NCBI GenBank assembly: GCA_964445265.1
Contig: CAYUPU010000002.1
Location: 1 to 53,688 of the forward strand
Direction of reading: 5' to 3'
From: an uncultured Methanomassiliicoccales archaeon
Lineage (GTDB): Archaea; Thermoplasmatota; Thermoplasmata; Methanomassiliicoccales; Methanomethylophilaceae
DNA: 53,688 nt
The notes under the pieces are model-generated. The model saw only the letters and a list, made by a program, of their open reading frames with translations. It had not been told where the DNA came from and searched no databases. A program made the translations under genes and the position numbers. Of the stretch, positions 45-50,552 are shown piece by piece; the stretch's first letter is position 1, and each line of letters opens with the position of its first letter.

Positions 45-869
45 CTTAACACATACATCTTAGACTTCGAGAAGTACTGGGGGCCTTCCGCGATATGTAA
101 AATCGAGAGAACGTATCGGTTCTCTGGAGAGCTCCTTAGGAAGAGTAGCGAGTTCATCTGCAGGAACAGCCGTCAATTCAGGAAGGATCTGGTCGGCATG
201 AGCGGTATGGACAGCAGGGTATTTTCCATATCCAAAGATGACGATGTCCAGACGCGTGAAGAGATAGGGCGGAGGCTTTCGTTCATCGGTAATGGGAAGC
301 GGGTCTTGTTCCTAGGGAGATACAATCATGATGTCAGGCTGCTGAGCGGTGACGGATTCGAATGGATACAGAACATCTCGGATGCCTCGAAGACTATAAT
401 CTACGGTCCACGTCCGGATCTGAATATGAGGTTCATGACGATACATTCATCCAAAGGCCTCCAGGCGGATGTGGTGTTCTCCATCAACAATAGGGCCGGG
501 AGGTACGGGTTCCCGAGCGTCAGGGAGGAGCCGATAGCGATCTCGATGCTCCTTGGCGGAGAGAACACGCAGGTCGACGAGGAGCGCAGGCTGTTCTATG
601 TCGCCATGACCAGAGCCAAGGAGGCTGTGTATATCGTCTCTCAAAACGGACGTCAGTCGGATTTCTTCAAGGAGATGTTCCCGAGGCGCGATGCGAACGG
701 CAAGAGGATTGATATGACCTGTCCGTTGTGCGGTGGGATCTTGATTCTGAAGACCAATCAGAATGGGCACAGGTTCTACGGATGCAGCAACTACCGTTCC
801 AAGGGATGTAAATTCACAAGGAACTGTGTCATCGTCGACAACCTTCCTGGAAGCGGGTCTCGTATCCGA
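45..869 (+). CDS. C-terminal part of a UvrD/HelD-like SF1 helicase with a C-terminal topoisomerase-type C4 zinc finger (5' part missing)
   Basis: Motifs TYRF (upstream of ATG 198, same frame), MTIHSSKGLQAD, EERRLFYVAMTRAK, then CPLCG..FYGCSNY..C. The frame is open from 45, with TGA at 42-44. First in-frame CGA is 867-869; standard-code end is TAG at 887. Confidence 0.8.
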
Positions 870-1012
870 TGCCGGTCTGGATCTTAGAGCGTATCTGCGA
901 TTGTCGGATCGCAGCGGTGCAGTCTTCGGATTCAGTGCGTGCAGCGTTCGTGCAGGGCGGAGCCATTATGCCGACTTCTTTTGTGGTTGGGGATTGTCGA
1001 ATACGATACTCG

Positions 1013-1030
1013 CCGTTCGAAACGGTTTTT
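1013..1030 (+). terminator. Small hairpin plus T5, possible terminator
   Basis: CCGTT-CGA-AACGG followed by TTTTT, downstream of the helicase. Confidence 0.3.
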
Positions 1031-1555
1031 GCTAGGTAAGCAGTGAGTTGATAAATCGGTCGTCACAAGCGAATCAGCACAATGTCTCCGCCCTTCCTGG
1101 ACGCCTCCATTCGGATGACCAAGGTCCGAGCATCTGTTCCGCCGCCGTCATCGGACGAGGTTCCATCTCCTCGGAAGCAGGAGAGCATCTGCAGGCGCAT
1201 CCGATGTCCGCGATCCCCTCAGCACGATAGCTCCGGTCTCGGTCGGATCGCGGTACGGATCACACGGATGGTTCAACGTCCCGAATCGTTCGAACGGCCA
1301 TCAACTCACTGCTTACATAGCAAGAAACGGTTTGTATCCGGGATCCATCGGATGCATCCAACGGATTCAGGGTATTCTCGAACGGACGTTCTTCTGCCTC
1401 CGCCCGATACGGGCGAATCTTCAGATTGCACACGACCGGAGCACGAACTCCGTATATGAGGTGCGATGTTCTATCGACCGTCACAGTAATATATTACGTG
1501 ACGATGCTTTAGTTCTGCGACCACTTGCGTGGCATGAGTACAGACTGTGATAACT

Positions 1556-4500
1556 ATGGAGAGACCACATGCGGTAGTCCTCACATCCGCTCTGGCAGTG
1601 ATTGTTCTTCTCGCCTCCTGTCTCCTCATCATCGGAGGGGGGGGGGGGGAAACGAGAACGATGGTGCTGTGGAGGAGGGCGAGCTCGAAAAGAACGGCGT
1701 CGCCCATATGGAGTTGAAGAACGGAACACTAACTCTAACAGGCATTCAAGGAATGACAATGAACCTTGCGAATGTCAGCTTTTGGCTTCTAGAGTATTCT
1801 ATGGGAGGAGGGGAGATTGGAGGTGGTGTAACCAAGATCGTTGTAGAGAATGCATCGGAAGTGGTGACACTCAACAGCGGAAAGCAGTACCAGTTCGCGT
1901 TTGAGAATTTCACTAAACTGCAAACGGTCGAACTGGAACAGTCGGTGAAGAGCATCGGCGAAGGCGTCTTCAAGAATGTCAAGACTCTGGAGACGATAAA
2001 TCTCCACTATGTCGAGACCATAGGTAAGGAGGCGTTCAGTGGATGCACGGGACTGAGTTCCGCAGATCTCGCACATGCGACTAAGTTGGGATACGGCGCA
2101 TTCAAGAACTGCACATCTCTAACGTCGGCAGATGTTCTGGCTTTAACTTCAGAAGCATCGTTCGAGTACAGGCCTTTCGACGGATGTTCGAAGCTAAATA
2201 CGGTAAATGTAACCGTATCGTTAGATACCGGACTAATAAAGCCGTTGTTCGGCGGTACGCCTCTGGAAAACTCCGAGGCGTGCAAACAGGTATCAGATCG
2301 TAGGGAACTGATTCCCAGGTTGCAGGATGCGGTAAACAATGATTACGGTATCAATACAGAGATCGTTGTGCTGAGAGATTTAGACCTTCGGAATACCGGC
2401 GTCAATATAGGAAAATCGATAGTGCTATTCCTCAATAACAGGAGATTGACCGCTGATGAAGGGCCTGCGATCACGATAGATGCAGATAGGGTCAGTTTGT
2501 ACGGAGCAGACACGAGAGCACAGATGTTCGACGATGGCGGCACGATCGAAGTCAAATCCGGCAATGCGGTGCTGGTCAAAAGCGGGAACCTCAGAATATT
2601 TGGAGGAACCTACTCCTCGTCCTCGGGCCAAGCGATCGGAACGGCTTTCACCGATGCAGGGCCGGCGACGATTATACAGATAGTAGGCGGGATCTTCACG
2701 GAAGGCAACGGCATCTCCAGAATCGGCAAGATCGATACGGCTTCCGGAACATCCGGGAGAATTATGAAGACGGCGGGTGTGTCTTTGGATCCCCCCGACC
2801 AGTACTACAAATGGAAGGATAACGGAAACGGATACCAGGTGCTGACCAGACAGACCTGGGTGGAGTTCTCCGTCGGAGAGGGTGTCGACTTCACCAAGGG
2901 TGCGGGACTCGACAGCCTCGCACTGGATTCCAGCGGCCGCGGCAGCATCGCGGTCGAGAACGGCACGACCATCGGGTTCTCCGCCATAGCGAAGGACGGA
3001 TACCGGAAGCTCAAGGTGGAATCGGGAATTCCTGCTACGGAGAGCGGAAATGTCTATTCCATAGATGTGGGCACGGCCGAGTCGATCAGTGTCGATATCG
3101 GTGCGACGAGGATGTACACAGTGACGTTCTCCAACAGCAGTGACGTGAAATTCTACAAAGGCACCCTGCCCGGTACCGAATATGAGTGGAATGAGGATGC
3201 GAATATAGCCTATGTCGTTCCGGGAGGATCGCTGAAATTCATGACAGAAGCTCCGAACGGGAGGATCGTCGTAGACTCGCCGTACAGCAGTATAAATGGG
3301 GATCACGGGTCCGAGTACGAAACGACCGTAACCATCGGATCCGATGGCGAAGTGAAGATAAAAGGAGAGTATCGTGTCGAACTATCACTGGTCGAAAACG
3401 GATCCGTGACATCGAACAAGGACTGGTATGCCTACGGGGAGATTGTGCAATTGAGATTCTATCCCGATACCGGATACAAGCTCGAAGAATGGAGTTGGCG
3501 TAGCCAAGATGGACAGAATTATGAGACCATAACAACGGGCAGACCGATGACATCTATGACTGCAGGAGGCATGACCGTCGAGGTGTCATTTGTCAAAGAG
3601 GTTTACTCGATTTTAAAGTCAAATCCAGAAGGTGCCACCTTGGAAGTCCAAGAAACCGCTCATTACGGGGATGTTGTGCGGGTTGTGGGCAGTTGCGAAG
3701 AAGGATACACCATGATTGGCGTCAGAGTCTTCGGTTCTTCAGAGCCAGTGGATGTCGGTGAAGGTCAAAACGGGTACGAATTCGTTATGCCTGCGGAGGA
3801 TGTCACACTGACCGCAGTGACGGCAAGGTTGCACACGGTGACCTTCGTTTGTCCGGCCGATGCCCAGATCACGTTGGGAGGAGGACTCAGTCTGACGGAT
3901 GAGGGGACGGTAACGGTGGAGGAGAGCACCATGATACAGTTCATCACTGCCACGAAGTCCAAGACAGGACGCACGGTACTGAAGTCGTCGGAATATGGCA
4001 TCGATCAAACGACCGACGGGCCAGAATATAGAATGTCCCTGGTGGTCGACTCGGATGGGACCGTCTCCGTGAAGACACAGTACAAGGTTACCCTCCAAAC
4101 CGTACCGCATGGAAAGATCACGGCCGACAAGGTGTGGTACGACAATGGAGAACAGGTCGTGCTGACTCTCGAGCCCGATGAAGGCTACAGAGCAGTCCAA
4201 TACAGTTGGGAGAGAAATGGAACAACTGTCGGAGTCGCAGGATTCGATGGGAGCAGACCCGCAAGAATAACAATGAATGGCGCAGACATAGACGTCAGTG
4301 CGTCATTCCTATCTAGAACCTACAACATATCCGCGTCTCATCCGGACAGCGGAGGGACGGTAGTTGTTCCGTCAAGTGCGGAGTACGGTACTAAAGTGGA
4401 GTTCACGGCAACTCCGGACAAGGGATACGAAGCGAGAGTCGTCATCGAGGATGTCTACGTGCAGCCGGATCCGGCGGATCCGACGAAGTACACATTTCGG

Positions 4501-7044: not shown

Positions 7045-7140
7045 TCTCACACCCCCTCCGGAAGGGGGCGCAAACGCATCACGGGCCGGCGGGGCCATCC
7101 CCGCGGCCCGGCCACATCCGCCCGGTCCGGCGTCCATCCG

Positions 7141-7150
7141 CTTTTATAGC
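7141..7150 (+). promoter_or_regulatory. Archaeal TATA box of the cob operon (probably a leaderless transcript)
   Basis: CTTTTATAGC about 25 nt before ATG 7171, in GC-rich context. Confidence 0.6.
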
Positions 7151-7170
7151 TCCACCTCGTAGCAGCCAGC

Positions 7171-8280: not shown

Positions 8281-8287
8281 TTATCCC

Positions 8288-9304: not shown

Positions 9305-10308
9305 GTCTCATAAGCTCTCACGGTGTGTACGAGGTCGACGGCATGCCCGTCGGCGTGGCGGAGTTCGCGGAGCCCATGGAGGTCCTGAGCTGCGCCGTCA
9401 TGAACGGCGGTGTCTCCACCGCTTCATGCGCTTTCATAATGCAGGTCCCCAAGGACTACTGCTGCGACGATCCGGACAAGGATGCGATCAGGGTCAGGGA
9501 CGCCCTGGGCCTGCCGTCCGATGCCCTGGGGATGATGACCGCCGCGGAGGTGGACTACGTCTTCAACGTGAGGTCGTGCACGTTCAACGGGGCCGAGGCG
9601 TCCGTGTTCGCCACCGCGGGGCTGAGCAACCACGTGGTCGCCGGCGAGGAGATCCGCGACTACGGCGGGCGGTCGCTCGTGTCTCTGAGGAGGGCGCGCG
9701 AGATGAGGGCCGGCACGATCAACATAGGCGTGGTCTCATCCGTTCCGATGACCATGGAGGGGAGGGTGAACCTCATGATCCCTCTGGTGGAGGCCAAGTG
9801 CGCCGCGATGGCGGAGCACGGGTTCCGCGAGACCGGCACGACGTCGGATGCGATGGCCGTGTTCTCGCCGATCGGGAGCGATCCGGTGTCATGGACGGGC
9901 ACGGGCTCGGACATAGGCATAGCCGCCGCCAGGGCGGTGTCCGCCGCCGTGGGGCACGCGCTGGACGTCCGCAACGAGCATCCGATACCGATAGGGCTGG
10001 ACGGCATCATGGAGAGGATGGGCCTCGGTCCGGAGGATCTTCGCAGGATGTCTGGGACGGGCATCCCTGCGGACGGCTTCCGCGATGCCCTCAGGGGGAT
10101 CGCGGAGCGTCCGGACGTAGCGGCCGTCCTGGATGCGGCATGGTTCATAGCCGATCGCGCCGATTCCCTGTCGGACGACGGAGGTCCGGAGCTGTCCGAC
10201 GCCATCGTGGACGGCATGGCCCGCATGGTCGGCGGGAGCCCGGTATCCGACGGATGCCTCATGGACCGCGTCATGGGGACGATCGCCAGAAGGGCGGGTG
10301 GTCTCCGA
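9301..10308 (+). CDS. cbiZ: Adenosylcobinamide amidohydrolase
   Basis: GMMTAA, ATAGLSN, GTINI, TGTTSDA motifs. Start uncertain (CTG 9301, GTG 9325 or ATG 9343). CGA 10306-10308 overlaps the cobS ATG; standard-code end is 10368. Confidence 0.85.
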
Positions 10309-11141: not shown

Positions 11142-11750
11142 GTGGAGGTCCTCGTCAACGCCGGCGGAAAGGGGTCCCGCATGGGGCCGTGCGGCATAGA
11201 GAAGCCCATGCAGATCGTCGGCGGAAGGCACACGGTGGACCGCGTCGTGGACGTCCTGGCGTCGTCCGACGGGCTGGACCGGGTGCTCGTATCGGTGAGC
11301 GGCAACACGCCGGAGACCGAGAGACATCTCCGGGACAGGGGCATCGAGACCGTCCGCACGTCCGGCGAGAGCTTCATGGACGATCTGCACACGGCGTTCG
11401 AGGTCATGAGCGGCGAGTACGTGATGACGTGCCCCTCGGATCTGCCGCTGCTCGACAGGCTCTCCGTGGAATCATTCCTCCGCTTCTTCCGTCCGGGGAG
11501 GATGGACTCCGCCATAGCGGTGATAGATGCGGCCACCGTCGAGGGGCTCGGCATACACCCCTCGTTCACGAGGGAGTGGAACGGGTCGGAGTGGGTGCTG
11601 TCCGGCCTGTGCATAATGGACCGCCCCAGGACCCTTGCGGGTGACTACCTGGACGAGGTGCTGTACGCCACGCGCTCCAAGGCGCTGGCGGTCAATGTGA
11701 ACACGCAGGAGGAGCTCGAGCTGGCCAGGCTCCTCTGCGACGATGGGCGA
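11142..11750 (+). CDS. cobY: GTP:adenosylcobinamide-phosphate guanylyltransferase (archaeal)
   Basis: AGGKGSRM..EKP, PSDLPLL, NVNTQEEL. CGA 11748-11750 sits just before a 15-bp hairpin; the standard-code ORF runs to 11870 into cobT. Confidence 0.88.
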
Positions 11751-16761: not shown

Positions 16762-17142
16762 TCGGTATCCGTCGGTCGCGCGCTCGGCGGCGTAGGCCTT
16801 GTACATTAGCCCCCACTCCTCCAGAGTATCCAGCACAGGGGACAGGGTCCTTCCGAGATCCGTGAGCGAGTACTCCACCTTGGGCGGGACCTCGGGATAG
16901 ACCTTCCTGGACACCAGGCCGTCGCCCTCGAGGTCGCGGAGCTTGTCGGTCAGCACCTTCTGCGACACGCCGCCGACGGACTTCTTGATCTCCCCGAATC
17001 TCCTCGTCCCCTGGAGCAGCTCCCTGATTATGAGTACTTTCCACTTGTCCCCTATCATCAGCAGCGTTGTCTCAACGGGACACGGCGGCAGTTCCTTCAT
17101 GTACGGTCTCCTGTCGAAGGGTGTTTGCTCCGATCCGGGCAT
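16762..17142 (-). CDS. HxlR-family winged-helix regulator
   Basis: CPVETTLLMIGDKWK, VSRKVYPEVPPKVEYSLT. Start 17142 or 17100. CGA at 16762-16764; standard-code end is TAG at 16726, across the ppa promoter. Confidence 0.9.
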
Positions 17143-17298: not shown

Positions 17299-17775
17299 AT
17301 GGACGCGAAGACCAATCCCATGAGGCACCTCGACAAGCTGGGCATACCGTATATGGTCCACTTCTACGGGGACGAGCCCCTGTCCGGGATGGAGGTCGCG
17401 GAGGCGATGGGCGAGAATCCGGCCGAGGCGTTCAAGACCCTCGTCACGGAGTCGAAGGACCGCAGACTCTACGTCTTCGCCGTCCCGGTCGACGGGGACC
17501 TGGACATGAAGAAGGCTGCCGCCAGCGTGGGGGAGAAGTCGCTCCAGATGATAAGGTCGAAGGACCTCCTCCAGCAGACCGGATACGTCCACGGCGGATG
17601 CTCGCCCCTGTGCCTCAAGAAGCCGATGAGGGTCACGTTCGACTCCAGCGCACTGGATCACGAGAGGATATACTTCAGCGCGGGCAGGATTGGATACCAG
17701 ATCGAGATGGCCGTGGCGGATCTGCCGAGGGCGCTGGATTTCCAGTTCGCGGATGTCAGGAAGCCGTTGCAGCGA
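17299..17775 (+). CDS. ybaK: Cys-tRNA(Pro) deacylase (YbaK/EbsC)
   Basis: KTNPMR, FKTLV, TGYVHGGCSP, SAGRIG. CGA 17773-17775; standard-code end is TAG at 17784. Confidence 0.92.
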
Positions 17776-18156
17776 TCGCAGTAGGGCGAGCCATCTCCCG
17801 GCGGCGGCCCCCGCCACGCACAGCGCCGAGTTCAACAGGATGTTGATTCCGGCGAGGCCGTACGATCCGTCGGCCAGCAGATTCACGGTATCGATGGAGA
17901 ACGTGGACATCGTCGTGAACGCGCCGAAGAAGCCCGTGAAGACCAGCGCTCTGGCCGTGTCGCCCGTCTGCACGCCCCAGGCGAACATGAGGTACGATGC
18001 GGCGCAGCAACCGATGATGTTGACGAGGAACGTGGCCAGCGGGAACGGGGAATCCACTGCCTGGTAGATGCCGTACCTCGAGAGCGCGCCGAGGGCGCCT
18101 CCCGCGGCGACCGCCGCGAACGGGACGAGGGATTCGATGCCCATGGGACGGTCCAT
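17776..18156 (-). CDS. crcB: Fluoride channel Fluc/CrcB
   Basis: GGALGALSRY, FPLATFLVNIIG, TGFFGAFTTMSTF. CGA at 17776-17778 gives 122-126 aa; under the standard code there is no stop until 16726. Confidence 0.92.
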
Positions 18157-19605: not shown

Positions 19606-20378
19606 TAATCGACGGGCGCACGATATCCGGAGGAAGGGCCTCCGGAAGGGTGCTGAGGCTGGACGAGCCGCTGAGCTTCCTCGGAGGCGTGGACGGTTCG
19701 ACCGGCGAGCTCCGCGTCGGTCCCGGCGGGAGCGTGGCCGGACGCGTCCTCGTATTCCCCCGGGGCAAGGGCAGCACGGTCGGATCCTTCGTCATGTACG
19801 ATCTGATGGTCCACGGGAAGGCCCCTGCGGCGGTCGTGAACGAGTCCGCGGAGACCATCGTCGCCACGGGCGCGGTGATATCCTCGATCCCGATGGTGGA
19901 CTCCGTCCCGTCCGTGTCAATGTTCGAGGACGGCGACGAGGTCGTCGTGGACGCGGATGCCGGAACGGTGGAGATCGTAGGGGTCGAGCTCAGGACCGCG
20001 GTGTCGTCCGTCGTGGAGAGGGACGGGAGGATCCTGATGCTGAAGCGTCCCGATGCATGCCGTTCGTTCCCCGGCCGCTGGTCCCTCGTGTCCGGCAGGG
20101 TGGAGCCGGGGGAGTCGCCGGAGCAGGCCGCCTCCAGGGAGATCCTGGAGGAGACCGGGATCCGCGTGGGGGAGCCCGATGCGGTCCTGCCGGTCCGGCA
20201 CGTCCGCGAGGGCTCCGTGCTCTGGGAGGTCCATCCGTTCCTCTACAGGATACCGGAGGGGGAGCCCGTGCTCAACGGGGAGAACGTCGTCTTCGAGTGG
20301 GCGGATCCGTCGGATGTGCCCGGCATGGGCACGGTCGACGGCGTGCCGGGGATAGTGTCCGATGCCATCGGGAACCGA
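19602..20378 (+). CDS. Phosphomevalonate dehydratase small subunit (DUF126) fused to a Nudix hydrolase
   Basis: GTG overlaps the upstream TGA; LSFLGGVD, GKGSTVGS, then Nudix box GRVEPGESPEQAASREILEETG. CGA 20376-20378; standard-code end is TAG at 20600. Confidence 0.88.
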
Positions 20379-25366: not shown

Positions 25367-26062
25367 TCGCAGGCCGAGGATGTACCTTATGGCCTCGTTG
25401 GCGAGCGTCATGCCCATGACGGCCGGCACGGTTGGCATGGATCCAAGGACGGACTTCCCGTGCTCGTCCCTCCCGTCCCCGGTGCGGATCGGCGGTTCGA
25501 TGTTGTAGACACAGGTGATGCGCGAAGCGTCGAACCCTCTCATGCCATTCCTGACGGCCGCCGCCACCGGGCACACCCGGGTCTCGGACAGGGGCCCCAC
25601 CCTGACGGTCGTGACGTCCATGTGGCGGGCGGCTCCCATGGAGGAGAACGTCCTGATGCCCTTCTCAGAGGCGGCCTGGAGCAGCTGGATCTTGCATCTT
25701 ACGGTGTCTATGGCGTCGATGAGAACGTCGAAGTCCCCCTCGAGGATGCCGGGTATGGTGGATCCGTCCACATGGAGCCTCATGGGGACGATGTCTATGT
25801 CCGGATTGATGGATCTCGCCCTCTCGCAGGCCACGTCCGCTTTTGGCCTGCCGACAGTCCCGGTGGTCGCGAGTATCTGGCGGTTGATGTTGCTGGCCGA
25901 GAACTCGTCCCCGTCGACCGTGCGGATCTTGCCGAACCCGGCCCTCACGAGCCCCTCCAGCGCATACCCTCCGACGGCGCCGTTCCCGACGACGATGGCG
26001 GACGCCCTTCCGATCCTCTCGACCCCGTCCTCTCCGATGAGCAGGGAGGTCCTCTCGCTCAT
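25367..26062 (-). CDS. tcdA: ThiF-family tRNA threonylcarbamoyladenosine dehydratase-like protein
   Basis: RTSLLIG, VGNGAVGGY, SNINRQ, DAID..K, SSMGAA, CP. CGA 25367-25369; standard-code end is 25295. Confidence 0.8.
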
Positions 26063-27551: not shown

Positions 27552-28580
27552 TCGGAACCAGGCGTCCAGGGACTTCTGCTTGCGCCTGTCCGACTCCGCC
27601 TTCCTGGCGGTGGCCATCTTCTCGAGCACGGTCCTGACGCGGTCCTCGGAGAACCCGTATTCCGTCATCATGTCTAGCACGCCCTCGGTGTCCACGGGAC
27701 CCGGCCTTATGCTGTATTCGTCGGATGTCGGACCCTCCAGGAATATCCTCCTGACGTCCTCGTATCCCGGGACGTCGTATCCCGTGGCCTCGATGACCCT
27801 CTCCAGGGTTCCGTGCTTCTGTATCAGCTTCAGGCCCTTCTTGGGACCTATCCCCGGTACGCCGGGGTTGAAGTCGGTGCCGATCATGATGCACACGTCG
27901 ACGAGCTGCTCCCTGGTGATCCCCAGGTCCCCGAGCATCTTCTCCGAGTCTATGATCTCGGGCGTCACGGTCCTGTACACGTTCTTCCCAGGCATCTTGC
28001 GCCTGCCGGACACGGTGAGGTTCCTGAGGAGGAGGGGGGCACCGAACAGGAGCGAGTCGAAGTCCTGGGATGCGGCCGCGTACACGTCGCCGCGCCGGCA
28101 CATGTACGCGCCCTGGGCCTCTCCGTCGCTGGGGGCCTGGACCACAGGTATCCCCATGAGGCCGAGGAGCCTCTTGGAGGACTCCAGTATCTCGGGCGTC
28201 ATCCTCGATGTCTGCTGGGCCTTGGAGAACGCCCTTTCGAGGTCCCCGTGCTCCAGGGCCTCCCTGTACTCCGCCTCGGCCTTCTCCCTCCTGGCGATGC
28301 GCTCGCCTATCGTTCCGGCCTTGAGGGCGTTGGCCTTGCCGTCGAAGACGTAGGACGGTTCAATCCCGTTCTCTATGAGGTTGGCCGTCCTGTAGAGGAG
28401 GCCGGAGAGCTGGGACGTGGTCCTCCCCTGCTCGTCGCACAGGGGCCTGCCGTCCGGCTGGCGGATGATCGACAGGAACTGGAATATTGTGTTGTAGGCG
28501 TCCACCGCGACGGATCTGCCGCGGAGGTCGGAGAGCTCGACGGGGACGGCCTCGGCGATCGGGGACAGGTTAACTCCCAT
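27552..28580 (-). CDS. fen: Flap endonuclease 1
   Basis: MGV, VDAYN..QFLSIIRQPDG, APSDGEAQ, SQDFDSLLFG, GTDFN.G..GIGPK; terminal PIP box QKSLDAWF followed by CGA (27552-27554). Standard-code end is TAG at 27486. Confidence 0.97.
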
Positions 28581-28581
28581 A

Positions 28582-29244
28582 TCGGCACCCCTTCCGCCCG
28601 AGGGCCTTCCAGGACGCTATGGTCGGGGACATGTCCTCCTGCTTGAACAGGAACGATCCCGCCACCAGGACGTCGGCGCCCGCATCGACGCAGATCCTCG
28701 CGGTCTCGTCGTTGATACCGCCGTCGACGGAGATCAGGAGGGAGGGGTTGTGCTCCTCCGCCCAGGCCCTGGCGCGGGAGATCTTGGAGACGCACTCAGG
28801 TATGAACGACTGTCCTCCGAACCCCGGATGGACGGTCATCACGAGGACGATGTCCGCCAGAGGGAGCCATCCGTCCAGCATCTCGTCCGGGGTCTCGGGG
28901 TTTATGGATATCCCCGCCCTGAGCCCTCTCTCCCTGATCCTCTCCACGGCCGCGCGGACGTTCCCGCCGGCCTCCATATGCACGGTGATGGCATCGCACC
29001 CGGCATCCGCGAAGTCGTCCACATAGCGGACGGGGTCCTCGATCATGAGGTGGGCGTCGAAGAGCTTGCCCGAGCATCCCCTCACGGCCTTGACCACCGG
29101 CGGTCCGAACGTTATGTTGGGGACGAATGCGCCGTCCATGACATCGAGGTGTATCCAGTCGGCGCCGGAGGCGTCCGCGCGGGCGACCTCCTCGCCTAGT
29201 CTGGAGAAGTCTGCGGAGAGTATGGACGGGGAGATCAGCGTCAT
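28582..29244 (-). CDS. rpe: Ribulose-phosphate 3-epimerase
   Basis: SPSILSADF, HLDVMDGAFVPN, MTVHPGFGGQ, VDGGIN. CGA 28582-28584 lies one nt before the fen ATG; standard-code end is 28570. Confidence 0.96.
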
Positions 29245-29572: not shown

Positions 29573-30495
29573 TGGAGCTCCTGTTCCTGGGGACGTCGGC
29601 CGCCGTCCCTTCCAGAGAGCGGTCGACATCCTGTGTAGCCGTCCGCGACGGACAGGACATAGTCCTTCTAGACTGCGGGGAGGGGGCGCAGCGCCAGATG
29701 ATGGCGTCCCCGTTCTCGTTCATGAGGATACGCGCAGTGCTGATATCGCATCTGCATGGCGACCACGTGTTCGGCCTTCCGGGCCTGCTGCAGACCATGG
29801 GCCTGTCGGACCGGCGGGACCCCCTGGTGGTATGCGGGCCGCCCGGGCTCAAGGGATACCTCGAGGCGTCCATGTCGTTCACGGAGGGCGAGACGACGTA
29901 TCCGGTGGAGATCGCGGAGCTGTCCGGCGGGGAGTGGCTGGATGTGAGGCGGTTCCGCATCGGCTGCTTCCGGACGGAGCACGGGATAAGCTCCCTGGGC
30001 TATGTCATCAGAGGTCCCGACTCCCCGGGGAGGCTGGACCACAGGAGGGCTCTGGAGCTCGGCATCAGGGACGGTCCGGACATGGCCCGTCTCAAGAACG
30101 GGGAGACCGTGAACGGCGTCTCGCCGGAGCAGGTCATCGGGCCCGTGATCCCGGGGTTCACGGTCGCGTACACGGGGGACACCCGTCCGTGCGACCGTAC
30201 GGTCGAGAGCGTCCGCGGAGCGGACGTCCTGATCCATGAGGCCACCTACACGTCGGCGGAGTCCGATAACGCCAGGGAGCACAACCACAGCACCGCCCTC
30301 CAGGCGGCGGAGGTGGCTCGCGCCGCGGGCGTGGGGCATCTCATCCTGACGCATATAAGCAACCGCTACGACGACCGGTCGGTCCTGGAGTCCGAGGCCC
30401 GCGCGGTCTTCCCGGAGTCGTACGTCGCCGACGACATGCGGATGTACACCGTCCTCAGGAGCGGCATAAGGCTGGAGACGCCGCAGGTCAGACGA
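29572..30495 (+). CDS. rnz: Ribonuclease Z
   Basis: FLGTSAAVPS, LDCGEG, SHLHGDH, YTGDT, HEAT, HST, THISNRY. CGA 30493-30495, with TGA ending at 30501. Confidence 0.96.
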
Positions 30496-32658: not shown

Positions 32659-33243
32659 ATGAAGATCATCGACGAGCCCCAGTTCGGACCGATGTTCCGC
32701 TTCAACGACGCGAACGTCTATTGGGCGCTTTACATCCTATCCAGCGGCAGGCGCATCGGCAGGAAGAGGCTTGCCGACGAGGTCGGCGTCGGAGAGGGCA
32801 GCATGAGAAGGATCATCGAGACCCTCAAGGAATGGAGCTTCATCGACATCAAGCAGACCGGCATAACCATAACGAAGTCGGGGCAGGCGTTCCTCGCCCA
32901 GGTTCCCATCAGGCCGGTTGACGTCTTCATCGAGGGCTCCGTGATCGGCGCATGCCAGCAGGGCGTCCTCGTCATCGGCGGGGAGAGCAAGGTCAAGAAG
33001 GGCATGGAGCAGAGGGATGCCGGCATCAAGGTCGGCGGGTCCGGCTGCACGACCCTGGTGATCCGCGACGGCGCCCTCATGATACCACCGGACTGGAACC
33101 TCGACGAGAAGGATCCCGAGGCCGCCTACAAGATCCGCAAGGACACCGGAATGACCCAGGACGACGCTCTCATCATCGGCGGGGGGGACACGAAGCCCCT
33201 GGCTGTGGAGTCCGCCATCGCCGCGGCGCTGTCCATGTTCCGA
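32659..33243 (+). CDS. Winged-HTH protein with a DUF4443-like C-terminal domain
   Basis: IGRKRLADEVGVGEGSMR, GMEQRDAGIKVG. Ends CGA-TGA (33241-33246), overlapping the next ATG. Confidence 0.75.
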
Positions 33244-34178
33244 TGAGGCATCAGCTGTCCTATTCGGTCTATCAGGATCTGTCCGTATTCGGGGACGATC
33301 CCTCCGCATCGCTGCGGTCCATGGGATGCGATTCCCTGGAGATGCTCACATCCTACGACACTCCGGACGCCTCGCTCAAAGGTCTGATAGGATCGGTCCA
33401 CTTGCCGTACGCCCCGGACTGGCTCGCGGCCTGGGAGGATCGCCCGGTGGAGATGCCGTCGGATTATGCGCTGTACCACATGTTCGGCTCCTCCCGGGAG
33501 GAGCTGGTGGCCAATGTTCGCAGGGCCGTGGCCGCCGCATCCGTCCTGGATCCCCCGTACGGGGTGTTCCATACGGGCAACGCGGACACCCCCGAGATAT
33601 TCAGGAGGACGTACTCCCGCAGCGATTCGGATGTTCTCTCCGCGCTCTGCGAGATGCTCAACACGGTGGTGTCCGGCCTCCCGGGAGGGGAGCCGCCGTT
33701 CGACCTCATGCTCGAGAACCTGTGGTGGCCGGGCCTCCGCCTGCTGGACCCATCCGGGTTCAGGCGCCTGGAGCGGGATCTGGAATTCGAGAGGTGGGGC
33801 ATAAACCTGGACACGGGGCATCTGATGGACTGTCTGCCGGTGTCCACGGAGGCGGAGGCGATAGATGCCCTTCTGGATGTTTTCGACGGGTATCCGTCGG
33901 ACATGATAGAATCCATCCGCGCGGTGCACCTCCATTGGAGTGCCACGTGGCCGTACCGTTCGTCCTTCGAGGAGAGGGGGTACGAGCCGCCATTCGAGGA
34001 GTTCATCGTGGAGGCCAACCGGCACGTGTCCCAGATGGACCGTCATCTTCCGTTCTCCGATCCCCGCTGCAGGGAGCTCGTCGACGTCCTGCGGCCGGAT
34101 TTCATCACCCATGAGCTCCCCGGGTCGGAGCGCGGCATGATCGAGGATCTATCGAAGCAGAGGGCGCTCCTTCCGCGA
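33243..34178 (+). CDS. Xylose-isomerase-like/AP-endonuclease-2 TIM-barrel protein
   Basis: SVHLPY, YGVFH, LENLWWPGL, LDTGHLM, VHLH, DRH.PF, THE. CGA 34176-34178; the standard-code ORF would run over rpl40e to 34361. Confidence 0.8.
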
Positions 34179-39910: not shown

Positions 39911-40540
39911 ATGCTGTACTTGGATTTCCTGGATGCGGTCCGCGGCGTGCCCGGCGTCATAGACGCGGTTCCGCTGGGCCGTGCGATGGCCTCTAGGATA
40001 TGCGATGTGGAGGACGGGCTCGTCAGAGGGGCGAGCGGATTCCGCATGGAGAACGCCGGCATGAACGCGTGCGCCTCGCAGGACAGCCTGTTCGTCATGT
40101 TCTGCGATTCGGACTACGACAGGGGTTCAGAGGTGAGCATCGAGATGGTGGATGATCGCGGCGTGACGGTCGGCCATGACGTGCCAGAGGCGATGAGGCC
40201 GCAGTTCGCGGATCGCGGCGATGTCGTGTGGATAGCCGACAACTTCGTGATGTTCCCGGACAGGCTGGGTCCGTGCGATGCCCGCATGGTCATGAAGGCC
40301 GTACGCCCGGACTGGAGCGCCGGGATGGACGTCTCCCCGCGCACGTTCCTCCCGTCGATGGAGTCGGCCATGATGCTGAAGGGCGCATACGGCTACGACG
40401 ACCCGATGGTGAGCGCCGTGGTCCTGGGCGTGAGCGGGCTCGAGGCCTGCCCGTCCTCGGTTCCTGTGTCCGATGTGGTGGAGGTTCCCTGTGCTGGGTG
40501 CGGCCATGGTGAGTCTGCCTCTCAGGACCCCCTTTACCGA
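39911..40540 (+). CDS. Hypothetical protein (3' end uncertain)
   Basis: TTATATAAAA upstream; coding-like to about 40450. First in-frame CGA is 40538-40540; standard-code end is 40852. Confidence 0.6.
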
Positions 40541-41044: not shown

Positions 41045-41839
41045 ATGTCTGTCGATTTCGAGAATCTGGAAAGGGCGATCGTCTCCGCCATCAAGAACGA
41101 CGTCGAGGATCAGGACGTCGCCGTGGCCTTCTCCGGCGGTCTGGACTCGGGTCTGGTGGCGGCCATTTCCAAGGACTACGCGAGGTCGGTGACGCTCTAC
41201 ACGTCCGGTCGCGACAAGTCATACGACGTCGTCATGGCGCAGGAGATGTCCGAGAAGCTGGGCCTGCCATGGCTCCATATCCCCATCACCGAGGACAACA
41301 TAGAGTCGAGGCTGAGGGAGATGATAACCATCACAGGCACCTCGTCCCCGCTCACGCTGTCCTTCGAGCTGCCGATGTTCTTCGTCTGCAGGACCGTGCA
41401 CGAGAAGTACATCATCGGCGGGCAGGGATCGGACGAGCTCTTCTACGGGTACAGCAAGTACGTCGGCCTGCCCGACGACGAGCTGGTCAGGCTCAGGAAG
41501 ACCGATATGGGGAAGCTGATCACATCCACCATACCCCACGAGACGCTGGTAGCCGACCACTTCGGCAAGAGGATCTACTACCCGTACATGGACCCGCTGG
41601 TCACCATGCAGGTCAACGCCATGGATCTGGACGAGCTCAAGCCCAAGGACAAGGACTCCAGGAAGATGCTCCTCAGGGAGATCGCCCGGGACCTCGGCTA
41701 TCCGTTCATAGCGGACAAGAGGAAGAAGGCGGCCCAGTACGGCTCCGGGACCATGGACCTGGTCAGGGACGTCGCGAAGAGGAAGGGCATGACCTACTCC
41801 GAGCTCGTCGACTCCATCTACAGGGACATATTCGAGCGA
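41045..41839 (+). CDS. Stand-alone asparagine-synthase C-terminal (ATP pyrophosphatase) domain protein
   Basis: AFSGGLDS, GQGSDELFYGY, KKAAQYGSG; no glutaminase domain. CGA 41837-41839, with TGA ending at 41845. Confidence 0.85.
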
Positions 41840-41869: not shown

Positions 41870-42751
41870 TCGCTCCGTTGCATCCATCTCGCGGATAACG
41901 TGGTCCGCATAGGCGCCGGCGACATCCACCCCTGTGCACTCCTCGAACGATTCGAAGAACGCGTTCGAGTTGACCTCGCAGACTATCGAGTAGTCGCCGT
42001 CCTCGTCCTTCAGGAGGTCTATCCCGCAGTAGTCCAGCCCCAAGATCTCCGCGGCCCTCTCGGCCAATCTCCTGGTGCCAGCTCCCGGGTCGAAGGGCTC
42101 CGCGGATCCGCCCAGGGCGCAGTTCGATCTGAAGTCGGACGCGGACCTCCTGACCATCCCTCCCAGCGCCCTGCCGCCGACCACGATCACGCGCAGATCC
42201 TCCCCGATGCTGGTGGCCACCGCCTCCTGGTACAGGTGCCTGGTGCCCTTGAGCTCCTCCGATGCGGCATCCAGCCCGGCCCTGTCGCGGACCATGCGGA
42301 CGCCGGTCCCTCTGGATCCGTAGCATTCCTTGACGATCATCGGATAGCCGTACCTCGACTCCAGGATGTCGGCCGTTGCCGGGTCCAGGGGCATGGACCG
42401 GTCGTACATCATGGGGGCCGGGGTCGTGTCCGGCATGCGGATGCCGCCGCCGGCGAGCGCGATGTACGTGAGCATCTTGTCGTCGCAGACCTCGATCGAG
42501 CGGGCGGTGTCGAAGAGCCTGGTCCCGGCGGCCTCCAGCATCCTCGACGTGTACAGGTCCTTGTCCAGGAATAGGCAGAAGTCCGGGGCATCCGCGGCTA
42601 TGCGCCCCTCGGCAATGCGCGCGGGGAGCGACGTGTTCTGCACGATGTCCACGTCGGCGCCGCGGGCCAGGAGCTCCTCCTCCATCCTGGCAATCTGGTT
42701 CTCGTACGGTCCGTTGCGGAAGTAGGCGTTGCGAACGATGGATCCCCTCAT
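41870..42751 (-). CDS. RimK/LysX-family ATP-grasp ligase
   Basis: CDDK..TY, YPMIVKE.YGS.G.GV, DLRVIVVG, FRSN, CGIDLL, CEVNSN. CGA 41870-41872 gives 293 aa; standard-code end is 41219. Confidence 0.9.
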
Positions 42752-42851
42752 GCCGCTCGGACATCCGATAGCGCATCATCGCCTATAAACCAGGGCGGAT
42801 GGTCGGTACAGATATAAGCAGGCCGGCCATCGCACGGCAGCGTAGATTCAA

Positions 42852-44111
42852 ATGTCGACGGGTCCCAATACTGAGTGGTACGCCGGTCTGTCAAACAGGG
42901 GCGTGAGGCTGGGCCTCGAGGACGAGCGCGAGCTCCTCGGGAGGCTCGGCAGCCCTCAGGACTCCCTCCGGATCCTCCACGTCGCGGGAACCGACGGCAA
43001 GGGCTCCGTCTGCTCGTTGATGGAGTCCGTCCTCATCGCGTCCGGATGCTCGGTGGGCATGTTCACCTCTCCCGAGATCCTCAGCGTCAACGAGTGCATC
43101 AGGATAGCCGGCGCCGAGATCGAGGATGCGGATCTGGAGCAGGTCATGGGCGTGGTCAGGACGGAGGCGGAGGCCATGGCCGCGGAGGGGAGGCCCTGCA
43201 CATGGTTCGAGGTCCTCACCGCCGCGGCCCTCGTCGCATTCAGGACTGCGGGGGTGGAGTTCGCCGTCCTCGAGGTCGGCATGGGAGGGAGGCTGGATTC
43301 GACCAACGTCGTCGTTCCGGAGTCCTGCGTCATCAACAACATCGAGATGGAGCACGGCAGGTTCCTCGGTTCGACCCTGGAGGAGATAGCGGAGCAGAAG
43401 GCCGGGATAATGAAGCCGGGCGTCCCTTGCGCGACTATGAACCCGGACCCCGTGTTCCGCGTGCTGGAGGCGCGCTCCGCAGAGGTCGGGTGCCCCCTCC
43501 GCAGGATAATGCCGGAGGAGGTCGGCGTGGTGTCCATGGATCCGCGCTCGATCGTCATGGAGTACAGAGAGGAGCAGTTCCGCGTGGGCCTCCCCGGGAG
43601 GCACCAGGCCAGGAACGCCGTGCTCGCGATGGCCTGCCTCGCGGCCCTTCCAGACTTCGAGGAGCGCATCCGCCCCAGCCTGCACCGCGGGCTCGAGGAC
43701 GCCGCGTGGCCGTGCAGGATGCAGAAGCTGCTGGCCGACCCCATCGTCGTGGACGTCACCCACACCGTCGGCGGCGCCAGGGACCTGGCGTCGGACGTGT
43801 CGGAGATATACGGCAGGGTCGTCCTCGTGATAGGGATGCTGTCGGACAAGGACGTGGACGGCGTCATGAGGGAGCTGGCCCCCGTGGCCGAGAGGGTGGT
43901 GGTCACGGAGCCGCCGTCGCCCAGGGCGATGCCGTATCAGGAGGCCGCGGAGGCGGCGTCCCGGCATATGCGCGTGGACCTGGCGTGCCCGACGGTGGCC
44001 GGGGCGATGGATGCGGCTATGGGGATGAGGCGGGACGAGACCGTTCTCGTCACCGGGTCCCTGCGCATGGCGGAGGGGGTGCTGAGATGGCTCAATCAGA
44101 GATCGTACCGA
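42852..44111 (+). CDS. folC: Folylpolyglutamate synthase/dihydrofolate synthase family
   Basis: HVAGTDGKGS, FTSP, EVGMGGRLDSTN, KAGIMK, VTGSL. CGA 44109-44111; standard-code end is 44177. Confidence 0.9.
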
Positions 44112-44794: not shown

Positions 44795-44820
44795 AAGGAC
44801 GATTGCATGGTACACCGTCC

Positions 44821-45201: not shown

Positions 45202-46286
45202 TGTTCAAGTACAGGGACGAGGCGACGGCCAGGAGGATACTCGAGCGCATCGGGAATCTGGATGTGGATGTCCGCCTGATGCACATATGCGGAACGCATC
45301 AGGACACCATAGTCAGGTTCGGCCTGGAGGAGATGCTGAACGATGTGGGCGTCAGGATCGCGCAGGGCCCGGGGTGCCCGGTGTGCGTCACCACCAGCGC
45401 GGAGATCGCCGATGCCATCACCCTCGCCAGGAACGGCGTGACGGTCACGGCGTTCGGGGACATGATGAGGGTGCCCACCACGATTGGATCCCTCTTCGGG
45501 GCCAAGGCCGAGGGCGCGGACGTGCGCATCGTCTACTCCATAGACGACGCCGTCCAGATGGCCCGCGACGAGCCGGACAGGCCCCTGGTGTTCGTGGGAG
45601 TGGGGTTCGAGACGACCGCCCCGTCCACATGCGTCCCGCTCCAGAAGGACGACTGCCCCGAGAACTTCAGCGTCTACAGCTGCCACAGGATCTGCCCGCC
45701 CATCATAGAGGCGCTCTACGAGCTCGGCGAGAACAGGATAGACGGGTTCATCATGCCCGGCCATGTCGCCGTTATAACGGGCCTCGACATGTTCTATCCC
45801 GTGGCCGAGAAGCACCACGCGCCCCAGGTCGTCGCCGGCTTCGAGCCGCTGGACGTCCTCATGGCGGTGTACATGTTGTGCAGGCAGATCAAGGAGGGCA
45901 GGGCCGAGGTGGAGAACGAGTACACCCGCCTGGTCCGTCCGGAGGGCAACCCCGTCGCCAGGAGGCTGATGGAGGAGACCTTCGACCCGGTGGACCGCGC
46001 ATGGCGCGGATTCCCCGTCATAAGGAAGAGCGCCCTGGCCCTGAAGCCCCGGTTCGCCGACCACGATGCGACCAAGGTCCACGAGGACATCCTCGCCGGG
46101 ACGCCGGCCGTGGAGGCGGAGGCCAAGGGGTGCAGGTGCGGAGACGTCCTCAGGGGCGTCCTGTCATCGGAGGAGTGCCCCATGTTCGGGAAGGCATGCA
46201 AGCCCATGAGCCCGCTCGGGCCGTGCATGGTGTCGGCCGAGGGCAACTGCTCCATCGCGTACCGTCTCGGGTCGAGGCGGTACCGA
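45198..46286 (+). CDS. hypD: Hydrogenase formation protein
   Basis: ICGTH, GPGCPVC, GFETT, PGHV, GPCMVSAEGNC. CGA 46284-46286 overlaps the next ATG; standard-code end is 46379. Confidence 0.96.
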
Positions 46287-46864
46287 TGTCCGACGGTTGC
46301 GCAGGCACGAGGATCCTCGCCGAGATGCGCCTCGGCAAGAGGATCCTGGTTGTCACGAACGATTCGACGGTCTTCCTGAAGAGGGCCCTGTCGACCCCCT
46401 GGGAGATCTTCGGCGGCCGCGTGACGGAGGTCAAGAACCTGGTGGAGCGTCTGGACACGGCGGTCGACGGCAAGGGCGGGAAGCTCTGCGACGTGTCCTT
46501 CGGCGTGATAACGACGAAGTACGGCTTCGTCCCGGCCAACTACAACATCCTCCCGTACGACGGCGTGATGTCCGATAGGAAGGGCTACGAGGAGGCGGAC
46601 GGGAGGAAGCACTTCGTCGAGCAGACATCGTTCCTCACGAGGCCGTTCGACAAGGTGGTGATGTGCGTCCCCAACGACATGTTCGAGATGTTCCTGGACA
46701 GAGGGCAGATCGAGGACGGAAAACTCATCGCGGTCACATCCCCCAGGTTCAGAGAGGAGTGCGAGCGCCGCGGATGGACCTGGCTGGAGAGGAGGGGCGC
46801 CAGGGTCGGCTCGGGCAACGCCGATGAGATCGAGCGCCTCGTCCGCGAGCTGTGCTCGCCTCGA
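46286..46864 (+). CDS. Hypothetical protein, loosely DUF6884-like
   Basis: FGVITTKYGFVP..ILPYD. CGA 46862-46864; standard-code end is 46954. Confidence 0.7.
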
Positions 46865-47318: not shown

Positions 47319-47397
47319 GGGGCGCACCATACCCCTGCCCCGTTTATCCCTTTCCCTATAGCGACATGTTTTTCGGAACGGAGCGTTCCGGATGGCG

Positions 47398-48306: not shown

Positions 48307-48362
48307 CGCACCGTCATCCGCGGTGCTGGAAGTGTCATAAACACGGATCGCATGGCGGGCGT

Positions 48363-48923
48363 ATGGACCTGCTGGCCGTGGTTCTCATAGGCGTGGGGCT
48401 CGCCATGGACGCGTTCGCCGTGTCGGTGTGCAAGGGCATGGCCATGAGGCATCCGACCATCCGCCAGACGGTCGTCGTCGGCCTGTGGTTCGGGGGCTTC
48501 CAGGCCCTGATGCCCGTGATAGGGTTCCATCTGGGCGGAGCGCTCTACGACCATATATCGGCCTACGACCACTGGGTGGCGTTCGTCCTCCTTCTCCTGA
48601 TAGGCGTCAACATGGTTCGCGAAGGCCTTTCGGACGACGGTGGCGAGGCGGATGCGAGTCTGGGGTTCAGGACGATGCTCCTGCTCTCGATCGCGACGAG
48701 CATAGACGCTCTGGCGGTTGGGATATCCCTGGCCATGACGGAGGGCGAGATCCTGCTCCCGGCCGCGATCATAGGCGCGGTGACGTTCGTCCTCAGCGCA
48801 TGCGGGATCAGGCTCGGCAGCGTGTTCGGCGACAGGATGGGGTCCAGGGCCGAGATCCTGGGCGGGATCATCCTGATCGCCATCGGATCCAAGATACTGC
48901 TCGAGCACCTGGGGATCATCTGA
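48363..48923 (+). CDS. mntP: Manganese efflux pump MntP family
   Basis: GLAMDAFAVS, FQALMP, ATSIDALAVG, AEILGG. Confidence 0.93.
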   Translation: MDLLAVVLIGVGLAMDAFAVSVCKGMAMRHPTIRQTVVVGLWFGGFQALMPVIGFHLGGALYDHISAYDHWVAFVLLLLIGVNMVREGLSDDGGEADASLGFRTMLLLSIATSIDALAVGISLAMTEGEILLPAAIIGAVTFVLSACGIRLGSVFGDRMGSRAEILGGIILIAIGSKILLEHLGII

Positions 48924-48933
48924 CGGGCTCGGA

Positions 48934-49959
48934 TCGCTCGCAGTCCTTGGACTCCTCTTCCGAGGGCGTCCCGTCGGCGGGCTCCTCGACATCGGGCTGA
49001 TGCTCGATGAGGAGCATGTTCTCGACGTAGTCCTCGACAGCCGTCTCGGGGTCGCTCTCGCCCTCGTCCTTCTTCATGATCATCTGGAGGAGGCCCTTCT
49101 TCTTGCCGAGGAGGTCGTCCAGGACGGGTTCGGACTCCTTCTGGAGATCGATGTCGCTCCAGTGGTCGAACATCCTCACGAAGTCGGAGTCCGTCATGCC
49201 GGCGGTGTCGTTGGACAGGGCCCGGCGGATGAGGTCGTAGACGTGCAGGTCCTCGTTCTCGTCCTCGTCGTAGGTCTCCGGATCGTAGTTCCTGCTCTGC
49301 AGGTACTCGTCGATGACGGATATGAGGCCGGAAGGGTTCCTGTGGTATGCGACGACCCTCTTGAACAGGAGGGGGAATATGTCCTTGTAGAACTCGTCCT
49401 CGCCCTCGGCGGCCAGTCTGGCCGCGTCGTTCCTGCAGACGACGTAGACGGAATAGTACAGGAACGCCTTGCAGGAGAGCCCGGTGCTCTCATCCAGGTC
49501 GTCGGCGACCCTGTCGATGTGGGAGAGGACGTTGAACTCGATGAACTCTCTCTCCTTGTAGTGTATCATCCTGGACAGCGCGCTGGACATGAGGCAGACG
49601 TACGCATCGAGGTTGAACGCGTTCCCGATGAGCTCCAGCCCCTTCTTCCAGCTTACGAGGACCTTGCCGTCCTCGCCGGCCAGGGCGTAGACGTATCCCA
49701 GCACGAGGTGCGAGTCCCCGTTGCCGACGGTCTCCACGAGGTCCGTCGCGACCTCCATGGCCTTCTTCTCGTTGCCGTCCTCGATCGCTTCGAAAACGCT
49801 CCTGAAGCGGTCCTCGATCTCGCTGGGGCGGATGAACGCGGTCGCGTTCGCGCGGTCCTTCAGGATGAATTTCCCGCAGCTGTCGCAGACGTATCTGTCC
49901 GGGTATGTGGAATCGACGGTCCTGCCGCAGTAGGGGCAGCACATCACAGCGAAATCCAT
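48934..49959 (-). CDS. Zinc-ribbon plus TPR-like helical protein with an acidic tail
   Basis: CPYCG...CDSCG, helical repeats; TTATAT upstream. CGA 48934-48936; standard-code end is 48916. Confidence 0.75.
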
Positions 49960-50300
49960 GGACGCAAAAGAAGGGTATCGATATAAGAGGGTTGTCCAGG
50001 CCGTATCATGGTTGGACGATGCAGCCACAGTGGTCGTTTCATGGAGGAAACCGTCCGTATTTCGTGCGCGGCTCCTCCGTTTTCGCACCGTCTGGCCGTT
50101 CCGGACGTAGCGCCGTCCGGTATTGGTTGCACGCCGCATCGATGGTCCGAGCATCGCATCCGCGTGCCGCGCCCGTTCCGCGGAGGGGCATGCGCCCCTG
50201 CGCGCCGGAAGGCCCGGCCGGCTCCGCCACCCTGTTCCGGTGCGGGGATGCGATGATATTATGGAATGCCTAAAATATCGGCGACAGGAATCGGAGGGCC

Positions 50301-50552
50301 ATGTACAGGACGACAGTGAGCATCGAAGGCATGATGTGCGGCCACTGCGAGATAGCGGTGAAGGAGGCCGTGACGAGGGCTTTGGACGTGAGGAGCGCCA
50401 GGGCGTCGACGGCCAAGAGGAACTGCGTGATCGTGTCGGAGGGGCCCTTGACGGAGGAGGACGTCCGCAGGGCGTTGGATCCGACGGGCTACACCGTCAC
50501 CGGATTCAGGTGCGAGCCCTACGAGAGGAAGGGGCTGTTCGGAAGGAGGCGA
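50301..50552 (+). CDS. Heavy-metal-associated (CopZ-like) protein
   Basis: IEGMMCGHC...GY. CGA 50550-50552 gives 83 aa; the standard-code ORF would be 478 aa, mostly antisense to the next gene. Confidence 0.88.

Follow-up and report, generated by a model that had tools for sequence, protein, structure and literature searches.

Can a codon that means arginine in code 11 serve as a stop in a free-living archaeon? The question is raised by a window of 53,688 nucleotides, the whole stretch of DNA analysed here (contig CAYUPU010000002.1, assembly GCA_964445265.1), from an uncultured member of the Methanomassiliicoccales (family Methanomethylophilaceae). An initial annotation had noted 25 genes in this window whose first in-frame CGA falls at or near the C-terminus, and had proposed that CGA terminates translation. 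Comparative evidence strongly supports that proposal, and the phenomenon is real, genome-wide and family-wide. It is most likely a variant of the genetic code in which the codon has a dual meaning. We consider it likely that CGA acts as a leaky fourth stop, read by the archaeal release factor aRF1 while tRNA-Arg(UCG), which is retained but probably weakened, competes for the codon.

CGA at gene ends, genome-wide and in the window

The window is one contig (C2) of a 1.59 Mb assembly with 62% GC that is 86% complete. Open reading frames (ORFs) called under code 11 were aligned to 1.2 of the 1.9 Mb of one relative (G045) and to 0.2 Mb each of two others (G008 and G014), all of the same genus, and to 0.8 of the 1.9 Mb of an outgroup from another family (G030). 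Raw BLAST lists of internal CGA consisted mostly of out-of-frame overlaps with upstream genes, so sequences were trimmed to coding cores before counting. Cores aligned to G045 orthologs contain 4 internal CGA among 178,473 codons, of which 12,260 specify arginine, and two of the four are apparently antisense shadow frames. The outgroup carries 132 CGA in 97,290 aligned core codons where the subject genome has 3. Within the CG box, codons ending in A make up a share of 0.0008, versus 0.014–0.20 in the seven other four-codon boxes. When 94 "inside-core" CGAs were read by eye, most proved to be a gene end followed by another in-frame ORF, or antisense shadows. CGG stays an arginine codon (336 of 7,807 conserved Arg columns); it is also very rare in G008 and G014 (L273-L292), at 3–4 of over 1,000 conserved Arg columns.

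Gene ends show the opposite distribution. At 405 positions aligned to a canonical stop of G045, the subject genome has TGA at 192, CGA at 73, TAG at 20 and TAA at 8. CGA thus accounts for 73 of the 185 non-canonical codons at these positions, against a rate of 2.1% in-frame just 3' of TGA stops (binomial p ~1e-71), which excludes chance. Among CGA-ended ortholog pairs, the G045 partner ends in TGA in 163 of 175. Across the genome, 483 of the 1,369 genes with a clean end (~35%) finish in CGA, so the positional pattern first noted in the window holds for the genome. Read under code 11, the frames would run past these 483 codons by a median of 29 codons, by at least 50 codons in 183 cases, and would overlap another coding core in 242; the amino-acid tails encoded 3' of CGA differ between strains. 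Inside genes TTA is almost as scarce (11 of 179,155), but neither TTA nor CAA nor CAG is enriched at positions aligned to G045 stops. A general relaxation at the first position, with CAA and CAG as stops, is therefore not supported.

CGA ends have a terminator-like nucleotide context. The +4 base is U at 267 of 483 terminal CGAs (55%; 49% without overlaps) versus a background of 26%, and A at 25 (5%) versus 15.5%. In the fifth of genes with the strongest codon bias, 51 of 274 end in CGA, fewer than the 134 of 274 in the second fifth. Many CGA stops lie inside operons, and in 39 cases the codon overlaps the next ATG as CGATG. The palindrome CGATCG joins convergent gene ends at 17773-17778 of the window and at 34 gene ends genome-wide, and convergent ends within 30 nt are commoner among CGA-ended genes (113 of 483) than among TGA-ended ones (58 of 752).

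Within the window, all 25 sites are in-frame CGA codons of the genes concerned, each preceded by 92–421 codons without CGA or stop. Coding score, with CGA set neutral, drops clearly 3' of the codon at 24 sites and is flat at 40538. An independent codon-model gene caller recovered 53 genes, of which 25, the same 25, end in CGA, 22 in TGA, three in TAG and three in TAA. Relatives were available for 19 sites, and at each of the 19 at least one relative has TGA or TAA within 3 codons of the CGA; among the relatives' loci compared, there was no ortholog match for the sites at 867, 10306, 11748, 40538, 48934 and 50550. At seven of the 25 sites a canonical stop lies within 5 codons anyway, so these are weak taken singly. 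The long code 11 products pointed out earlier for CrcB (476 aa), a CopZ-like protein (478 aa) and a RimK-like protein (510 aa) compare with 126, 83 and 293 aa when read to CGA. No internal CGA was found in ileS (67 Arg), topA (45), hypF (67), the adhesin gene (86) or the Arg-rich gene at 50580 (102), together 367 arginine codons. The sites are listed below by coordinates, strand and identity; gene names in quotation marks are labels of the initial annotation.

867..869, +, terminal CGA of a "helicase"-like ORF; canonical stop 5 codons on; no ortholog match
10306..10308, +, terminal CGA of "cbiZ"; score drop and codon-model caller; no ortholog match
11748..11750, +, terminal CGA of "cobY"; score drop and codon-model caller; no ortholog match
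16762..16764, -, terminal CGA of an HxlR/MarR-type regulator; score drop; ortholog TGA at offset 0 in 1 of 3
17773..17775, +, terminal CGA of "ybaK"; score drop; ortholog TGA at offset 0; adjoins the crcB stop as the palindrome CGATCG
17776..17778, -, terminal CGA of crcB (126 aa); TIGR00494 spans residues 15-124; all 8 orthologs have their stop no more than 2 codons away
20376..20378, +, terminal CGA of "PMDh-S/Nudix"; score drop; ortholog TGA at offset 0
25367..25369, -, terminal CGA of "tcdA" (tRNA ct6A dehydratase); score drop; ortholog stop within 3 codons
27541..27543, +, terminal CGA of "DUF3793"; orthologs at offset 0 with TGA 8, CGA 3, TAA 1 (n=14)
27552..27554, -, terminal CGA of flap endonuclease FEN1 (ends ...AWF); TIGR03674, residues 1-342 matching profile 1-338
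28582..28584, -, terminal CGA of "rpe"; score drop; ortholog stop within 3 codons
30493..30495, +, terminal CGA of "rnz"; score drop; ortholog stop within 3 codons; C kept in RNA contig
33241..33243, +, terminal CGA, directly followed by TGA, of an HTH gene; TGA at the CGA position in 4 of 4 orthologs
34176..34178, +, terminal CGA of a "TIM-barrel" gene; score drop; TGA at offset 0 in 2 of 2 orthologs
40457..40459, -, terminal CGA of "nikR"; score drop; TGA at offset 0 in 2 of 2 orthologs
40538..40540, +, first CGA of the 39911 gene, the weakest site; no score drop; no ortholog match
41837..41839, +, terminal CGA of an "Asn-synthase-like" gene; score drop; ortholog stop within 3 codons; C kept in RNA contig, depth 37
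41870..41872, -, terminal CGA of a RimK-family ligase (293 aa; code 11, 510 aa); score drop; ortholog stop within 3 codons; C kept in RNA contig
44109..44111, +, terminal CGA of "folC"; score drop; ortholog stop within 3 codons
46284..46286, +, terminal CGA of "hypD"; TGA at offset 0 in 2 of 2 orthologs; CGATG overlaps the next ATG at 46286
46839..46841, -, terminal CGA of "ogt"; score drop; ortholog stop within 3 codons
46862..46864, +, terminal CGA of the 46286 gene; score drop; ortholog stop within 3 codons
48304..48306, +, terminal CGA of "DUF1848"; score drop; ortholog stop within 3 codons
48934..48936, -, terminal CGA of a "zinc-ribbon" gene; score drop; no ortholog match
50550..50552, +, terminal CGA of a CopZ-like chaperone (HMA; 83 aa; code 11, 478 aa); score drop; no ortholog match

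FEN1 is the clearest single case of CGA at a gene end. In 23 complete genus loci its WF or WM end is followed by TGA 18 times, by CGA four times (including the window's own copy) and by TAA once. Under code 11 the 476-aa crcB product would be a fusion to the HxlR/MarR-type regulator.

Release factor, tRNA and the internal copies of CGA

The aRF1 of the subject genome reads NIKS-KTT-M, and its Met65 aligns to Arg68 of human eRF1. At this position 79 of 80 named family loci have Met or Leu, as do all of 120 close homologues, and the 7 outgroup loci all have Arg; outside the order, conservation of residue 68 is judged from PDB matches and PMC5681627. The factor is thus altered in its codon-reading region, and a relaxed aRF1, one of the routes suggested from the window, gains direct sequence support. 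In the free-energy simulations of Lind et al. (2017, PMC5681627), human Arg68 braces the NIKS loop, and an Arg68Ala change lowers the penalty for a first-position C from ~6 to 1–2 kcal/mol. In yeast, eRF1 competing with tRNA-Arg can bring about release at CGA (Wada and Ito 2018, PMC7379694). Met at this position may have a causal role. A PF03463 search of the subject genome found only aRF1 and pelota, and the complete relatives G008 and G014 gave one aRF1 match each at 1e-60. The aRF1 tree is a quick version without bootstrap, and a single-sequence AlphaFold model of the protein (pLDDT 37.9) was unusable.

Loss of tRNA-Arg(UCG), another suggested route, was rejected because the gene is present (G000:C9:30692-30765, G000 being the subject genome). 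It keeps the Arg identity positions A20 and C35, and matches occur in 43 of 62 genus genomes. Positions 31:39 are unpaired in 25 of 25 genus copies read (30 loci fetched, five not parsed). Outside the genus, 20 of 20 copies, drawn from further genera and families, keep the pair; for the other genera of this family alone the figure is 14 of 14. The retained tRNA is probably weakened in this genus. A separate tRNA pattern search also matches tRNA-Pro(CGG) and misses many outgroups, and was therefore not used for presence or absence. In the tRNA-Arg(GCG) gene (G000:C9:21003-21077), the anticodon arm contains one T.T mismatch together with two G-T pairs.

The aRF1 gene itself (G000:C41:12599-13828; L032:1444-2676) keeps one in-frame CGA, at the conserved Arg78. 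Its frame is continuous through the codon, with a TIGR03676 match over residues 11-408, and so there is no frameshift at the signal. Exactly one CGA is present in aRF1 in 23 of 23 genus loci (at residue 78 in 20 and at 25 in one of the 21 that were placed). Across 66 family loci with CGA-free neighbours, aRF1 has CGA in 64 and exactly one in 63, in seven placements (residues 78, 25, 11, 123, 50, 9 or 99+105), and 12 of 12 further genomes have one or two CGA in the aRF1 N-domain, within the first 139 residues. Since the codon is kept while its position moves, we infer selection on the codon and not the residue, as feedback would need. If CGA is a stop, the gene carries a conserved early in-frame stop signal, and this pattern suggests a predicted autoregulation in which CGA acts as feedback. 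In one locus (L142), aRF1 has an in-frame stop just before NIKS besides its CGA; sequencing error, a pseudogene or pyrrolysine are candidate explanations.

Three further genes keep internal copies. In rpl18e (G000:C1:17639-17950; L313-L342) the string TGG-CGA-GA recurs in 29 of 30 loci, and the 14 outgroup loci among them all have it. Its presence in the outgroups makes this CGA older than the code change, and its retention means that some contexts are read through well; the conservation suggests that the string may be an older nucleotide-level element. A NifH-NifD-like fusion (Fer4_NifH plus Oxidored_nitro) is encoded at G000:C3:6631-8721 (L344), with paralogues on C4 and C10, and three of the five fusion paralogues in the subject genome have CGA in the linker. 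In a survey of 30 of 62 listed matches, CGA stands in the variable linker in 23 of 26 genus loci spanning it, with TAG in one (L370) and neither in two; none was found in 3 outgroup fusions. The +4 base of the linker CGA is A in 14, G in 7 and C in 2, never U, and Fisher tests on this context overstate significance because the loci are kin. The arrangement suggests programmed readthrough, by which one gene would give a free NifH-like reductase and the fusion. Several other fusion paralogues are listed with one internal TAG, where pyrrolysine readthrough possibly does the same job. In the gmhA-gmhB fusion (G000:C1 near 15065), CGA lies at the domain junction, where G030 has AAA; this is a possible further two-product site.

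CGA is thus not absent from coding interiors, as conserved copies remain in aRF1, rpl18e and the NifH-NifD-like fusions. The initial annotation had found no internal CGA in the intact genes it scanned; this stands for the window genes, ileS, topA and hypF included, and gives way elsewhere, in aRF1, rpl18e, gmhA-gmhB and three of the fusions. Translation has to continue past the CGAs of the essential genes aRF1 and rpl18e, which gives the codon a double meaning and makes it less than a clean stop.

Avoidance of CGA extends well beyond the subject genome. In 66 of the 80 named aRF1 loci, the aligned neighbouring genes contain 10,339 Arg codons and not one of them is CGA, and in outgroup loci CGA makes up a few per cent of Arg. 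Internal CGA has thus been purged in the main gut clade. Internal CGA is still used by termite-type members and two other family loci (e.g., 18 of 219 Arg in L151 and 9 of 216 in L130). Terminal use is 35% in the subject genome, 8/507 in G045, 1/121 in G014 and 0/86 in G008; because it varies this widely, the purge is a family-level trait and heavy use as a stop a lineage-level one. The subject aRF1 is 88% identical to named Methanomethylophilaceae records, e.g., 'Ca. Methanoprimaticola sp. MG2', whose record (L098) shows both Met68 and a CGA in aRF1. Several of the 80 named loci are near-identical, and some of their records bear bacterial titles; archaeal aRF1 contigs in bacteria-titled records, likely mis-binned, are L093-L095, L106, L108-L110, L126 and L170.

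Competition at CGA and its rivals

We hypothesize that the NIKS loop, loosened by the loss of Arg68, would admit C at the first position. The sense meaning of CAA and CAG would hold because their tRNAs outcompete the factor, and CGA, served by a poor tRNA, would often lead to release. In this GC-rich lineage TGA stops would have drifted to CGA. The CGA in the aRF1 gene would then exert negative feedback, more aRF1 causing more aRF1 truncation, and the linker CGA would set free the NifH-like reductase alongside the fusion protein. The full scenario for the Methanomethylophilaceae, a four-stop code arising from one substitution (Arg68 to Met), with self-tuning of aRF1, a NifH-like two-product switch and stages visible in living relatives, is one we favour by a narrow measure.

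Several observations weigh against this reading. G030 has Gln at the Arg68 position and uses CGA freely, and the termite-type and two other family loci combine Met68 with internal CGA, so loss of Arg68 is not sufficient. The simulation concerned Ala, not Met, in human eRF1, and predicts an equal loss of discrimination for CAA and CAG, which are not stop-enriched here (PMC5681627). The CGA of rpl18e, in a ribosomal protein, must be read through efficiently. The 31:39 pair is unbroken in the 14 copies from other genera of the family, yet loci from other family genera likewise lack most CGA, and the break therefore cannot have started the process. G045, G014 and G008 hardly end genes with CGA, and there the codon looks nearly unused and not like a common stop. 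Kinship among the compared loci means that their counts cannot be treated as independent.

A different account of the same gene ends is stalling followed by rescue, in which CGA is a "hungry" codon and the chain is freed by pelota, aEF1A and ABCE1 with peptidyl-tRNA hydrolase, with no codon reading by aRF1. The structurally weakened tRNA of the genus, the presence of pelota and the framing of the yeast CGA case as rescue (PMC7379694) are consistent with this. Such rescue would have to serve 35% of genes, however, and predicts neither a conserved, position-shifting CGA in aRF1 nor family-wide loss of Arg68 nor the +4 preference. CGA is also purged in other genera, whose 31:39 pair is intact. 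We regard it as unlikely. Less likely still is a separate dedicated factor, a second release factor or adaptor like mtRF1 of vertebrate mitochondria. The failure of Arg68 loss alone to track the trait in G030 and the termite clade leaves room for a further component, as does an assembly that is only 86% complete, but the PF03463 matches and the single aRF1 of G008 and G014 argue against one, with no search made for an unrelated factor.

Site-specific C-to-U editing, which the initial annotation had also considered, would restore the ancestral TGA as UGA in a single step, and the subject genome has one CDA-fold deaminase gene, of a family that also matches in 12 of 14 control genomes. RNA contigs from one metatranscriptome with a near-identical strain bear on this, although they are consensus contigs and may include DNA, so that editing of a minority of transcripts would escape them. 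C is present at 30493 (all 9 differences listed), at 41837 and at 41872, and neither 27541 nor 27554 is listed with a change, so that no editing is seen at these five covered sites; 40457 and 40538 have no contig cover. Editing is very improbable in our judgement. We give equally little credence to CGA as a rare Arg codon in genes that carry tolerated C-terminal extensions. The Arg identity of tRNA-Arg(UCG), the need to read CGA in aRF1 and rpl18e, and the comparable internal rarity of TTA fit that account; against it, CGA replaces TGA at exactly aligned stops, the extensions are often long and overlap other genes, the tails vary between strains, and TTA is not stop-enriched. Sequencing or assembly error, with T read as C, could draw on the many sites in GATC-containing contexts. 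It is largely refuted and scarcely credible as the cause: the RNA contigs keep C, which excludes base-calling error, the same terminal CGAs stand in other species' assemblies, independent protein records and Illumina contigs, and such error cannot remove internal CGA family-wide. The initial annotation was right to doubt it.

Relation to known codes

In ciliates, the context-dependent meaning of a codon as stop or sense is reportedly set by its distance to the mRNA 3' end. Release-factor autoregulation is familiar from the +1 frameshift of bacterial prfB, and a study is said to describe autoregulation of plant eRF1. Class-I release factors of Mimivirus and Megavirus are autoregulated as well (PMC3521657). 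As in prfB and Mimivirus, making full-length aRF1 would require getting past a termination signal that lies in frame near the start of the factor's own gene; the aRF1 signal differs in being a reassigned sense codon of shifting position, read in-frame by its cognate tRNA with no frameshift.

Sense-to-stop changes are known from organelles, with AGA/AGG in vertebrate mitochondria, UUA/UUG in Marsupiomonadales mitochondria and UUA/UCA in peDinoflagellate plastids (PMC12574857). The CGA case resembles these in having a former sense codon at aligned gene ends, where homologs have their stops, in its purged interiors and in a release factor altered in its codon-reading part. It is unlike them in concerning a whole cellular genome, a factor of the aRF1/eRF1 class and a C-initial codon, and in having retained its cognate tRNA, with readthrough at a few internal copies. 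Because tRNA-Arg(UCG) is present and some internal copies remain, CGA is not classed as a clean reassignment. A comparable case is Saccharomyces cerevisiae, where an eRF1-class factor and an inefficient tRNA-Arg vie for CGA and chains are released, but as a low-level effect in artificial reporters and not as a genome-wide terminator (PMC7379694). The pyrrolysine TAG code of the Methanomassiliicoccales (Kivenson et al., 10.1101/2024.09.30.615893) involves the same family and a codon contested between aRF1 and a tRNA; its direction is the opposite, stop-to-sense.

The closest precedent is in a preprint (Melnykov 2026, 10.64898/2026.04.02.715157), which suggests a CGA stop for two Njordarchaeales assemblies and, in the text available, does not name the Methanomassiliicoccales. 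There too an archaeal CGA is missing from conserved domains and floated as a stop; that case differs in its order, in a coupling to CGG-to-Trp, in lacking tRNA-UCG and in that gene ends were not tested. We found no paper establishing a CGA stop in archaea, with subscription journals and two large supplements (Codetta and KACI) out of reach. The main text of Kivenson et al. makes no mention of CGA in the part available, 'CGA' is absent from the main text of Borrel 2014, and seven Codetta supplementary files gave no match for the names and accessions tried. The initial annotation knew of no earlier description; this stands as far as an established CGA stop is concerned and needs qualifying in view of the Njordarchaeales suggestion and the misreading of CGA by yeast eRF1.

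If confirmed, the change would be sense-to-stop in a free-living cell, otherwise found established only in organelles, and would supply the first natural C-initial stop codon for the aRF1/eRF1 class. How this class enforces U at the first position, the Arg68 prediction included, could be tested on this natural case, and living relatives would document the steps from a permissive mutation through purging of the codon to its wide use for termination. Methods such as Codetta and KACI are unable to call stops directly (KACI preprint), and the change could be hidden further from methods of this type by the few Arg-CGA sites that are conserved. The organisms concerned are common gut methanogens, which are mis-annotated in databases: the FEN1 of the subject genome is recorded only as a 364-aa read-through form.

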